From an uncultured archaeon (lineage in GTDB: Archaea > Thermoplasmatota > Penumbrarchaeia > JASLWR01), in the NCBI GenBank assembly GCA_964342815.1, contig CAYFHS010000020.1:37894-75450 (forward strand): 37,557 bases of DNA. Direction: 5' to 3'. Positions within the stretch are counted from its first letter, which is position 1. Each line of letters begins with the position of its first letter. Made by a program: the position numbers and the translations under genes. Under the pieces are notes generated by a model, which saw only the letters and a list, made by a program, of their open reading frames with translations, did no database searches and was not told the origin of the DNA. Positions 76 through 32,814 of this stretch are shown piece by piece.

Positions 76-2833
76 AGGAGTGACTGATAAAGGGGAAGCA
101 GAGAAAGGACTGACTGATAAGGTAGAGGCAGAGAAAGGAAACCCGGATGAAAGGGGGAACGAGGGTGAGGAGCCCGATGAATGTAGAAAGAAACCAGAGA
201 AACCATTGTCCCATTCAAGTTCTGGAGAGCTGGAATTTCCTGAAATCAGTATTAGAAAGCTATATGGTCCTCCCAGAAAACGCACACGCCGGGAAAAGGT
301 ACGGGTATATCTTACAGCGGTAGTGGTGGCCGTACTGGTCGGTCTTTCGATATTTTCATACATACGTTTCACAGCACCTGTGACAGGCTTCGATTCGGAT
401 GGAGATGGAATGCCTGATGATTGGGAAAATAGATACGGATTGGATCCCGATGATGGTTCGGATGCAAAAATTGACAGTGATGGTGACGGCCTTACAAACC
501 TGGAAGAATATCGTTATAACATATCCGCATCTGTAAAAGGCACGTGGGAGGGAGGAACCGATCCAAGGAATCCGGATTCCGATTTGGATAAGATGATGGA
601 CGGATGGGAAGTTGATCATAACCTGAATCCTCAGAATTCGTCCGATAAGAGATTGGATCCCGATAATGACGGAGTGGTTTTTACTGTCAACAATGTGACA
701 TTGGATGTAGATTTCTTCAATCAAAAGGAATACCAGGCACAAACCGATCCCAACGATCCAGATTCGGACGGAGACGGAATGCTGGACGGCTGGGAGGATT
801 TTTTCAACCTCTTCCCGTTGAGTCCAATTGACGCGGAGAAAGACAATGACGGAGATGGTCTGCTGAACTCATGGGAATTCCTTAATGGAACAAACCCTTC
901 GAATAACGATACTGATTCAGATGGGCTGGAAGACCTTATAGAACTCACTACCTATAATACAGACCCTTTACTTCGTGATACTGACCAGGATGGAATGCCC
1001 GATGGTTGGGAAGTGGGTTATGGGCTGGACCCCCTTGACGGGAATGATGCATATATGGATGGGGACGATGATGAACTCGCTAACTGGAGAGAATATTATC
1101 ACAATACTGATCCATACAATCATGATACCGACTCTGACAAAATGCCTGACGGTTGGGAAGTGGAAAAAGGATGGGACCCTATTAACGGGACCATGGAGAT
1201 CGATCCGACTTATCCGGATGGGAAGGACGATCCTGACAAGGATATTCTATCCAATTTCGAAGAGTTTAGAAAATTTTCGGATCCACTTGATTACGATACC
1301 GATGACGATGGCCTCAATGACGGTCTTGAGGCAGTGATAGGATTCCCCGGAAAGCTAGTTAACGGTGTTTTCCATATTGATGACCAATCTGCAGTTTATT
1401 TCACCGATCCGATATCCAAGGATACTGACAATGATGGGATTGACGATCTCGAAGAAACTAGAGGCGGTACCAATGCGTCCAATACCGATAGCGACGAAGA
1501 TGGTCTCGATGATATGGAAGAGGTCTACGGCGTCTGGATGGAGGATTTCGGCCTGGTACACCCAAATCCGTCAAACGAAGATACCGATTTCGACGGATTG
1601 ACCGATGCGGAAGAGGTCTACTCCACTTACGGTTATATAACCCATCCAAATCTCCCCGATACCGACTTCGACCAGTTGATGGACGGCCAAGAAGTATTAA
1701 CCGATTTCTTTCCGTACAGAGATGATCGAAATGACGGGAAGATCGACAGTTCCGATCCAAGAAACGTGGATACGGACGGAGACGGTATGTTCGATGGATG
1801 GGAAGTGGATTTCGGTATGACGAGAGTTATCAGGAACGACACTGGTCCAAACTTTATTCTGGATTATACCGCAGAAATTGGACTCTCGACATGGTTCGAT
1901 AAAGATTACGTTAATCTGAAATACAACTGGAACGGCAGCAGCTGGGAAGACTTTTTGGACCGCAACGGGGATGGTTTGATCGATCCGGAACTGCCTCCTA
2001 TGTTCGTCATCAATCCCGTTCTTTCAAATGACAGGCTGTATGACCCGGATAACGACGGACTTTACAATTACGTGGAGCATGATCGATTCAAAGAGATAAC
2101 CGGATTGGACAACAGCACTGATCCTTTGGAAGTGGATACGGACGGCGATGGTATGCCAGATGGCTGGGAGTTGGATTATTTATCATATTTTCCGGATTTG
2201 GGAATATGGGGTCCAAATCCCCTTCGATGGGATTCCTGGGAGGACCCTGACGAAGATGGCTGTCACTATGAGATCGACGGGGAAATGTATTATCATCCAT
2301 TCGTGAATATCGAGGAATACTGGTGGTCTAACTTCTATTCTAATCACTGTTATCCTAATTCGAGCGATGTGGACAATGATGGAAAACTCGATGGCGAAGA
2401 GATCTGGAAACATTCGTATGAGGGCGGCATTACCGAGGGAGATGGACTTGCAAACGGTTGGGAATGCCTTTTCGGTGCCTATAATCTATACATTTTTGGC
2501 CCTGAGGATTATATTCCACCCAATATTATGCCGCTCCATTTCAATCCTTTCACCTCGGACAGCAATGGCGATGGGATACTGGATCGGGATGCAGATCCCG
2601 ATGGGGATAATTCATCCAATCTGGAAGAATTTCTAAGAAAGACCGATCCAACGGATCCTTTGAGTTTCCCATCCAGGGCAAGTGGGGGTGATGATGAATA
2701 TCATCAAATTGGCCTTTCAAATCCGGGCTCAAAATTAGGGAAGATTGGAAGAATAAATACAGAGGGGTTAGGGAGCCTGGTAATCTTATGCGGAATCGTC
2801 ATTCTTATTGTTAGAAAACGCTTTTCTTCCTGA
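2..2833 (+). CDS. 5'-truncated membrane-anchored protein with many TSP3-like (DxDxDGxxDxWE) calcium-binding repeats
   Basis: Frame is open from base 2 (GEAEK repeats), so the track start at 80 (GTG) is probably internal. Hydrophobic segment VYLTAVVVAVLVGLSIFSYI is followed by about 20 or more DxDxDG motifs with WE/EE and TDP/NP spacers. C-terminal hydrophobic stretch plus RKR. Confidence 0.8.
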   Translation, partial: GEAEKGEAEKGEAEKGEAEKGEAKKGVTDKGEAEKGLTDKVEAEKGNPDERGNEGEEPDECRKKPEKPLSHSSSGELEFPEISIRKLYGPPRKRTRREKVRVYLTAVVVAVLVGLSIFSYIRFTAPVTGFDSDGDGMPDDWENRYGLDPDDGSDAKIDSDGDGLTNLEEYRYNISASVKGTWEGGTDPRNPDSDLDKMMDGWEVDHNLNPQNSSDKRLDPDNDGVVFTVNNVTLDVDFFNQKEYQAQTDPNDPDSDGDGMLDGWEDFFNLFPLSPIDAEKDNDGDGLLNSWEFLNGTNPSNNDTDSDGLEDLIELTTYNTDPLLRDTDQDGMPDGWEVGYGLDPLDGNDAYMDGDDDELANWREYYHNTDPYNHDTDSDKMPDGWEVEKGWDPINGTMEIDPTYPDGKDDPDKDILSNFEEFRKFSDPLDYDTDDDGLNDGLEAVIGFPGKLVNGVFHIDDQSAVYFTDPISKDTDNDGIDDLEETRGGTNASNTDSDEDGLDDMEEVYGVWMEDFGLVHPNPSNEDTDFDGLTDAEEVYSTYGYITHPNLPDTDFDQLMDGQEVLTDFFPYRDDRNDGKIDSSDPRNVDTDGDGMFDGWEVDFGMTRVIRNDTGPNFILDYTAEIGLSTWFDKDYVNLKYNWNGSSWEDFLDRNGDGLIDPELPPMFVINPVLSNDRLYDPDNDGLYNYVEHDRFKEITGLDNSTDPLEVDTDGDGMPDGWELDYLSYFPDLGIWGPNPLRWDSWEDPDEDGCHYEIDGEMYYHPFVNIEEYWWSNFYSNHCYPNSSDVDNDGKLDGEEIWKHSYEGGITEGDGLANGWECLFGAYNLYIFGPEDYIPPNIMPLHFNPFTSDSNGDGILDRDADPDGDNSSNLEEFLRKTDPTDPLSFPSRASGGDDEYHQIGLSNPGSKLGKIGRINTEGLGSLVILCGIVILIVRKRFSS

Positions 2834-32291: not shown

Positions 32292-32363
32292 AACCTCTCG
32301 ATGACAATGAGTTTGCCATGCTCTAGAGTTCCTAGGTTTGGCTAAAGTAATGTAATATTGATG

Positions 32364-32372
32364 AAAAAAAAA
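32364..32372 (-). terminator. Oligo-T terminator after tRNA-Val
   Basis: T9 on the minus strand starting 2 nt after the discriminator base. Confidence 0.75.
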
Positions 32373-32373
32373 G

Positions 32374-32447
32374 TGGGCCAAGCCGGATTCGAACCGGCGG
32401 TCATCGCCATGTCAAGGCGACATCATAACCAACTAGACCATTGGCCC
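32374..32447 (-). tRNA. tRNA-Val(GAC), no encoded CCA, no intron
   Basis: GGGCCAA/TTGGCCC acceptor stem, D-loop AGTTGGTT, anticodon arm TCGCC-TTGACAT-GGCGA, T arm GCCGG-TTCGAAT-CCGGC and discriminator A. Confidence 0.97.
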
Positions 32448-32702
32448 ATATCATATCTGTATTTTGTTGTTGTAAGGGCGGGATCAGGAGCCAGCACACT
32501 TGCTGGCGACCCAGATGTGAACCGACCAGAGGGAGGTATACATCGTTGGGAGCCAACACACCTGTTGGCGACTTAGTTGTGACCTGCGCAAAGCGCTGGT
32601 TACAACGTGATATGCTGGCATACCTGCCAGCATGGCCAGGTGAAAACCGAAGGGCAAAGCCCTGTTTTCACCGAGGATAACCAACTAGACCATTGGCCCA
32701 TA
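32425..32702. repeat. 26-bp perfect direct repeat ATAACCAACTAGACCATTGGCCCATA at 32425-32450 and 32677-32702
   Basis: Equals 3 nt of leader plus nt 1-23 of tRNA-Val. The two copies flank a 226-bp insert. Confidence 0.95.
32487..32676. ncRNA. Candidate structured RNA or ssDNA element: three tandem ~62-nt two-hairpin modules
   Basis: Hairpin A starts at 32490, 32552 and 32614 (exact 62-nt period). Hairpin B loops are centred at 32529, 32591 and 32657. Both stems show compensatory substitutions. Function and strand are unproven. Confidence 0.6.
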
Positions 32703-32732
32703 CCGGATTTACTTCTGGTTATTGTTATTCAC

Positions 32733-32747
32733 GATAAAAACCTTTCG
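32733..32747 (-). promoter_or_regulatory. BRE-TATA promoter CGAAAGG-TTTTTATC upstream of the truncated tRNA copy
   Basis: Archaeal BRE/TATA-like arrangement about 34 nt upstream of the first G of the 5' tRNA fragment (32699). Confidence 0.6.
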
Positions 32748-32814
32748 CCGAAATGGGAAAAAAACATCATGACCGGGATCAACAAAATCAGCCGATATTA
32801 CCAATTATTGACAA

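Follow-up and report, generated by a model that had tools for sequence, protein, structure and literature searches.

Why do three consecutive pairs of hairpins sit in front of a tRNA gene? The window studied here, a stretch of 37,557 nucleotides (nt), is part of contig C20 of G000, a 4.35-Mb Thermoplasmatota metagenome-assembled genome. At 32487–32676, direct reading of the sequence reveals three head-to-tail units, each consisting of a hairpin A of 7–9 bp and a longer hairpin B. An earlier, sequence-only reading took this array to be a candidate novel structured RNA. Here, we present the case that a novel structured RNA gene is the less likely interpretation. We hold, with moderate confidence, that the array is composed of non-autonomous palindromic mobile elements lodged in a 5′ stub of tRNA-Val.

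The structure itself is well supported. Hairpin A is GCCAGCA-CACT-TGCTGGC in unit 1 (32490–32507), GCCAACA-CACC-TGTTGGC in unit 2 (32552–32569), and (AT)GCTGGCA-TACC-TGCCAGC(AT) in unit 3 (32612–32633). The hairpin B stems of units 1, 2, and 3 span 32514–32544, 32576–32606, and 32639–32672; their loops are AGA, AAA, and AAA, and their basal pairs are GATG/CATC, GTTG/CAAC, and GGTG/CACC, respectively. Units 1 and 2, with a spacing of 62 nt, align ungapped at 72% identity over 60 nt. Tandem Repeats Finder does not report the array, a miss that is expected because the units are this divergent. The tandem units thus stand where the sequence-only reading had placed them, with the same stems and loops.

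That reading had also claimed that sequence changes while pairing is kept, and the claim is borne out when more copies are considered. Specifically, in an alignment of 10 modules, encompassing the three window units and seven homologous units from three related genomes, 93% of the cells in both stems are paired, with compensatory (double) changes at 8 of 16 stem pairs. The covariation score was reached by none of 500 shuffles, and sliding the stem partners by one to three columns reduces pairing to 26–41%. Shuffled controls, which the sequence-only reading had named as a check, likewise perform far worse than the native fold: the minimum free energy of the 255-nt stretch carrying the array is −113.6 kcal/mol on the plus strand (−77.2 ± 4.5 for shuffles; z = −8.2) and −102.4 kcal/mol on the minus strand (z = −5.6), and for each strand 0 of 200 dinucleotide-preserving shuffles is as good. 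Selection for pairing in the module stems is real. Furthermore, the junctions from tRNA to modules and from modules to the right flank recur with 0 differences in marine metagenome contigs from three studies, and therefore the array is not an assembly artifact. Metagenome contigs aligned on the locus show no joints and, in the parts covered, no alternative alleles.

The sequence-only reading of the array left out what brackets it: a tRNA-Val gene on one side and a 26-nt repeat of that gene's 5′ end on the other. The 226-nt segment between the two holds the three modules. The features of the locus are the following.

32373–32447, minus strand: intact tRNA-Val(GAC) gene (ARAGORN; Rfam tRNA, 67 bits).
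32425–32450, minus strand: direct repeat copy 2 (X2), tRNA nt 1–23 plus 3 nt of leader, within the working gene; 26 nt identical to 32677–32702.
32451–32471, minus strand: spacer, copied from the leader of a tRNA-Val(UAC) locus (..ACAGATATGA), ~85% like the spacer of the G001 UAC locus.
32472–32486, minus strand: Y1, TGATCCCGCCCTTAC, a copy of tRNA nt 22–36 (or 37) of the UAC type, from comparison with tRNA-Val sequences.
32487–32548, minus strand: module 1, subfamily alpha, 90% to module a of G001 contig C114 (covariance model R1, 70 bits).
32549–32610, minus strand: module 2, subfamily gamma (covariance model R1, 69.6 bits).
32611–32676, minus strand: module 3, subfamily beta, 80–86% to modules of G003, a member of another genus (covariance model R1, 79.5 bits).
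32677–32702, minus strand: direct repeat copy 1 (X1), the displaced tRNA nt 1–23 plus 3 nt, abutting the native upstream region; the empty site on G001 contig C98 has a matching flank.
32703–32750, minus strand: native tRNA-Val(GAC) upstream region, conserved at the empty G001 locus.

Read in the direction of the tRNA, the order is upstream region with a TATA-like box, X1 (nt 1–21/22), modules 3, 2, and 1, Y1, spacer, and intact tRNA. The tRNA census found no other GAC isoacceptor gene in the G000 assembly. Y1, which closes the 5′ stub at the anticodon loop, is of the UAC type and not the GAC type: tRNA-Val(UAC) has TGATGCCGCCCTTAC where the window tRNA has TGATGTCGCCTTGAC. The TATA-like GGTTTTTATC at 32734–32743 (minus strand) lies upstream of X1 and is now 252 nt further from the tRNA gene; judged by the archaeal TATA consensus, it is the likely native tRNA-Val(GAC) promoter. 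The 21-nt spacer, by sequence reading, contains no TATA-like box at a usable distance, and therefore the tRNA is probably transcribed from the old promoter through the cassette. The 226-nt insert harbors no credible gene, and all the frames that span it (52–79 aa) also cross the tRNA or its repeat.

Evidence that this segment was inserted comes from relatives. The genomes compared, all belonging to one Thermoplasmatota family, are G000 (the window), G001 (same genus), G002, and G003 (another genus). On G001 contig C98, the orthologous tRNA-Val(GAC) gene has the same flanks and no insert; a single gap of ~252 nt accounts for the difference. In G000, the GAC locus is filled with three modules, and the UAC and CAC loci are empty. 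In G001, GAC is empty, UAC is filled with two modules, and CAC is filled with one; a metagenome variant of this UAC locus has the entire unit doubled. G003 has one copy of the 5′ segment at GAC, and so no stub, two whole tandem units at UAC, and one module at CAC. In G002, UAC is filled with one module, and two further tRNA-Val genes, not assigned to GAC or CAC, are stub-less. The architecture is uniform: all five tRNA-Val stub types have a tRNA copy that runs to nt 37/38, with the modules placed directly after nt 21. Pattern scans of genomes and metagenomes for the stub–module junction returned this family only, plus chance matches.

The presence/absence pattern, the UAC-type stub in front of a GAC gene, and the tandem units together indicate that the unit is gained, lost, and amplified by recombination between tRNA 5′ repeats. 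The proposal is that a 252-bp unit, containing the modules, the stub remainder, the leader copy, and tRNA nt 1–23, entered tRNA-Val(GAC) from a tRNA-Val(UAC)-type locus. Entry would have occurred by recombination within the ~23 nt common to all tRNA-Val genes, an event that would leave the 26-nt direct repeat. One detail complicates this scheme. Both window repeat copies have T at tRNA position 16, and UAC-type loci have G; the shared T is more easily explained by a duplication of the target or by subsequent conversion than by simple recombination with a copy carried on the element. As to the source, in G001 the native tRNA-Val(UAC) leader upstream of X1 (C114, locus L027, ~2060–2118) contains a decayed ..GGCTCC-CGATGCCGC..-ACAGATATAATAT unit, and the "empty" UAC locus of G000 retains a shorter relic, GATTGGCTGTTTCGATGATCTATAT. 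Judging from these remains, the UAC locus looks like the ancestral home of the cassette.

Not one of the seven tRNA-Val stubs of the four genomes is free of modules, and therefore stub and modules may arise together. The subfamily order in the tRNA direction is X-beta-gamma-alpha-Y in the window and X-alpha-b-Y in G001. Subfamilies are thus shuffled between arrays, and their order gave no resolution of the order in which modules were inserted. Valine tRNA genes are not the only ones involved. Three stubs are present at tRNA-Leu(CAG) in G000 and at least two in G001, and an intron-containing tRNA-Leu has two units. At both kinds of tRNA-Leu gene, the modules lie where D-loop and D-stem meet in a truncated 5′ copy, with two to three units in tandem, and the leader is repeated with every unit.

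Beyond tRNA genes, the module is a dispersed repeat. Covariance-model searches recover 19, 20, 1, and 28 copies in G000, G001, G002, and G003, respectively. Thus, the homologue search that the sequence-only reading had put forward does find homologues in the family genomes. Modules are 50–66 nt long and number ~20–30 per genome in three of the four family members; a few diverged copies exist in two other families of the class, and 147 other Thermoplasmatota genomes sampled contain no module. The dispersed consensus is YCTCG-stem-loop-stem-CTGAST-YGC-stem-AGTG-stem, with loop and linker sequences conserved across subfamilies. The sequence-only reading had matched the array to no known RNA family, and Rfam release 15 agrees, both at gathering thresholds and by E-value: in the window, tRNA alone reaches the gathering threshold, and the other matches in 32300–32800 are far below it, none covering a module. 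At 12 other module loci, Rfam finds only tRNA and RNase P RNA.

Two copies are especially informative. At locus L060, a clean 50-nt copy is inserted in the loop of another repeat hairpin, which is interrupted there and intact at locus L048, and no target duplication accompanies the insertion. In the second case (locus L104, G000:C5:59862–59912), a module lies in frame within an open reading frame, where its 17 codons encode DLDESKDSSGLPGRDRS. The host frame specifies a receptor-like Ser/Thr kinase, and the module falls in the acidic juxtamembrane linker. No empty allele of this copy was found; the linker is not alignable in relatives. The nested copy and the in-ORF copy show the module to be a discrete insertion unit. 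Most other copies are intergenic, often among further hairpin repeats. Seven of the 19 G000 copies lie no more than 500 nt from a tRNA gene, and one copy precedes the "empty" tRNA-Val(CAC) gene by ~260 nt. No shared insertion target motif was seen in the flanks of dispersed copies, and no gene recurs within 1.5 kb of 19 of them.

These findings do not support a novel RNA gene confined to a single locus. The units are copies of a dispersed repeat that is present or absent at tRNA-Val genes, nests in another repeat, occurs inside a reading frame, and varies in number. Dispersed copies, together with an insertion that duplicates a tRNA 5′ end, have the look of selfish repeat DNA and not of a gene dedicated to a new RNA. 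Two observations temper this reading. Copy number is low compared with REP-like families, which counts against a mobile element, and the 80–86% conservation of the beta subfamily between genera could alternatively mean a cellular function.

Several further observations concern the surroundings of individual copies. In G001, the module of locus L046 (C104, 1501–1551, plus strand) lies 70 nt past the 3′ end of the archaeal RNase P RNA gene (1622–1965, minus strand), and the module of locus L047 lies 108 nt downstream of tRNA-Leu(CAA). Approximately 190 nt upstream of the L060 module (G001:C117), another repeat (TATATTGTCAATGGTG) is fused to the initial 13 nt of the tRNA-Val 5′ segment (GGCCAATGGTCTA). 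The tRNA-Val stubs on G001 contig C92 and G003 contig C27 likewise have the ATTGTCAATG..CTTGACAAT inverted repeat upstream of them.

If the modules move, what moves them? The search covered family assemblies that are 89–93% complete and from which extrachromosomal elements may have been binned out. G000 and G002 lack Y1 transposase (PF01797); G001 and G003 have five Y1 loci between them, and a search with filters off located no module within ~2 kb of any of these. Neither TnpB nor Cas1 was found in the four family genomes. There is no small GIY-YIG gene: the PF01541 matches are open frames of 599–673 aa, presumably UvrC judging by their length, and one 230-aa frame in G003, none of them at these loci. 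Matches to tyrosine recombinase (PF00589) are on other contigs only, with none at the cassette loci. Viral contigs, examined with two pattern scans and the covariance model, contain no module. G000 does encode a 415-aa tyrosine recombinase frame (C26:51794–52829) that starts ~470 nt downstream of tRNA-Thr(UGU); it probably marks a classical element integrated next to that gene and has no relation to the Val cassette.

The modules resemble several known systems and coincide with none. The bacterial REP/BIME (REPIN) elements are mobilized by RAYT Y1 transposases (PMC3116915, PMC3733652). Like them, modules are short, non-coding, dispersed palindromes that show compensatory change, form tandem arrays, are mostly intergenic, and fold asymmetrically with respect to strand. 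Unlike them, modules contain two hairpins in 50–66 nt, exist in only ~20–30 copies per genome, inhabit an archaeal host, and are linked to duplicated tRNA 5′ stubs, which is not a REP feature. Modules start with YCTCG and have CTGAST after hairpin B; the GTAG/CGTC tag that marks the hairpin foot of REP/REPIN sequences is absent. Although the modules are palindromic, we reject membership in the REP/REPIN–RAYT class on account of the missing tag and the lack of a module-flanked RAYT/Y1 gene.

Rickettsia palindromic elements (RPE) and the palindrome-associated elements derived from IS200/IS605 are small palindromic mobile sequences that cause no target duplication and can sit in frame in open reading frames. 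The modules, too, are small and palindromic, are inserted without target duplication, and have an in-ORF copy. They differ in that no transposase or defined target motif was found for them, and a preference for tRNA genes is new. Archaeal bulge–helix–bulge introns can occur at non-canonical tRNA positions, such as 20–25 in the D-arm (PMC4090602). The likeness is foreign sequence at a D-arm position of a tRNA-like sequence; the difference is that only the dead stub is interrupted, whereas the working tRNA gene is continuous. A bulge–helix–bulge intron was rejected on that ground and because inspection revealed no 4-bp helix with 3-nt bulges at GGTTA/YCCTCGG and GGCTCC/TGAT. A C/D box sRNA was likewise rejected: 32451–32702 contains no TGATGA on either strand, and CTGA occurs nowhere but in the CCTGATCC of the stub remainder. 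For a split-tRNA half, a K-turn, a group II intron domain, an integron attC site, a TnpB/IscB guide RNA, and an H/ACA RNA, the defining motif or partner was missing each time. Nor did the literature searched contain a description of hairpin-split tRNA stubs arranged in tandem before intact genes.

The strand on which the modules fold bears on whether they act as RNA or as DNA. Among 34 distinct modules, 461 of 506 stem pairs are Watson–Crick in the tRNA sense, with 22 A·C, 8 G·T, and 15 other combinations. The A·C mismatches concentrate at one stem position, where 17 of 30 modules have them and where the opposite strand has G·U. Of the 34 modules, 29 fold better antisense to the tRNA, that is, on the window plus strand, by a mean of 2.6 kcal/mol, a test that overstates independence as the modules are related. 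The structure thus seems adapted to the strand antisense to the tRNA. Set against probable transcription in the tRNA sense, this preference favors a DNA-level role, as a single strand, over a role as leader RNA, with antisense RNA a possible alternative.

Three rival explanations deserve consideration. One sees the locus as a scar that site-specific integration left behind: a plasmid or virus encoding a tyrosine integrase would have recombined in the tRNA-Val 5′ half, with crossover in the anticodon loop or D-loop, carrying its own leader and 5′ half. Most of it would then have been deleted, leaving attL, a remnant, and attR, with the hairpins as former arm or accessory sites or as later colonists. 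The classical integrase crossover region includes tRNA nt 37/38, which is where the displaced stub ends, and the direct repeat of the tRNA 5′ part, the regenerated intact gene, and the leader-like spacer all suit such a history. Integrases that target tRNA genes exist in G000, as the frame near tRNA-Thr on contig C26 illustrates. Archaeal integrase-mediated integration of the SSV and pNOB8 types leaves partial tRNA repeats, and a published parallel is the Caldiarchaeum tRNA-Thr 5′ fragment with its recombinase element (PMC3293823; reviewed in PMC8371274). The resemblance extends to a tRNA-terminus direct repeat around the insert, a displaced 5′ fragment, and polymorphism between close genomes. 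When the locus is judged as a tRNA-targeting integrative element, the repeat, intact gene, and empty site are all there, but the integrase gene is not. The insert is only 226 nt, and no remnant of an integrase or other gene exists at any of the seven tRNA-Val stubs. No attP-bearing element was found in the four genomes, which have no copy of the tRNA-Val 5′ segment away from these loci. Moreover, the stub is split at nt 21/22 by modules, small tandem units, differing in how many modules they hold, are found at several tRNAs, and compensatory stem change is unexpected for protein-binding arm sites. We regard an integration scar as an unlikely explanation for the array as a whole. A narrower question is whether the stub, with its end at nt 37/38, first arose as one, which it may have.

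The other two rivals assign the array a role as RNA. In one, the plus strand, antisense to the tRNA, would encode a structured non-coding RNA, a multi-hairpin scaffold whose 3′ tail (32677–32702) complements the 5′ part of every tRNA-Val gene or precursor and which could act as a regulator or guide. The better plus-strand fold with its conserved G·U position, the conserved loop and linker sequences, and the complementarity of the tail to all three tRNA-Val genes are what such an RNA would display. We judge it quite improbable: sequence reading finds no suitably placed TATA box or oligo-T terminator, the congener lacks the element at the orthologous locus, and modules nested in other repeats and inside a reading frame carry no such tail. 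The second possibility is that the array, read in the tRNA sense, belongs to the 5′ leader of pre-tRNA-Val and acts in cis on how the tRNA is processed, stabilized, or regulated. The position of the native promoter upstream of the cassette, the spacer devoid of a usable TATA box, and, by sequence reading, the absence of runs of five or more T in the tRNA sense make co-transcription with the tRNA probable. Nonetheless, the tRNA of relatives works without the cassette, modules fold worse in the tRNA sense owing to the recurrent A·C mismatch, and module number and type vary freely. A leader function seems to us very improbable.

We return to the reading that we favor, a non-autonomous mobile element. 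According to this model, the modules are tandem copies of a small, non-coding, two-hairpin palindromic element that behaves as non-autonomous mobile DNA. In the window, they interrupt a truncated tRNA-Val copy upstream of the gene, the stub of nt 1–37, at its D-loop position (nt 21/22). The hairpins would be the recognition structure of the element, most likely on single-stranded DNA of the window plus strand, and the mobilizing enzyme would act in trans. Transcription of the tRNA would start at its old promoter and run through the cassette, which RNase P would then cut off as a 5′ leader. Among the roles that the sequence-only reading had entertained, that of a single-stranded DNA recombination substrate comes nearest to this model; a protein-binding scaffold and an aptamer found no support. 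We also entertain, with little conviction, a bolder idea. The hairpin array could be an active machine on the antisense strand, either a scaffold RNA or folded single-stranded DNA, and the 3′ tail copying the first 23 nt of the tRNA could direct its insertion or copying into any tRNA-Val gene. Such an array would belong to an undescribed class of tRNA-gene-colonizing elements. If true, this would amount to guide-directed homing in the absence of an element-encoded protein, and it would explain why stub and modules always travel together.

Other repeats occur in this lineage. A second cassette type of ~108 nt (GGCGAGCA..AAGGGCAGGGTTTT..CAAAAAGTTTT) is present in G000 after tRNA-Val(UAC) and tRNA-Ser(UGA), at C29:22505–22579 plus ~125 nt downstream and at C25:35533–35618 plus ~135 nt downstream. 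Each of these cassettes is followed by a copy of the last 15–24 nt of the respective tRNA and an oligo-T terminator. tRNA-Ala(UGC) and a tRNA-Phe in G000 similarly have 3′-end copies downstream. These 3′-end cassettes and copies, alongside the 5′ stubs, indicate that both ends of tRNA genes are colonized in G000. Away from tRNA genes, two further hairpins downstream of the same ORF are kept in position between G000:C4:52400–52700 and G001:C81:43840–43960, and their stems differ: GGAGGC-GAA-GCCTCT versus GGAGGC-TTT-GCCTCC, and GGTCGGCAATTGCCGGCC versus GGTTGTCAGATGACAACC. To judge from these sequences, intergenic hairpins of the lineage are under structural selection generally.

On our best reading, the element is kin to known kinds of selfish DNA, with an apparently undescribed and unexplained link to the 5′ ends of tRNA genes. 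For genome annotation, the implication is that such arrays mimic structured RNA genes and can mislead RNA discovery based on covariation. If the reading is true, marine Thermoplasmatota carry miniature palindromic elements that prefer the D-loop position of tRNA gene copies and that build tandem arrays of stubs and hairpins ahead of working tRNA genes. The finding bears on how non-autonomous hairpin elements move with no visible transposase, and on the fragmentation of, and insertions into, archaeal tRNA genes. It may represent a widespread, overlooked route by which tRNA loci are remodeled.
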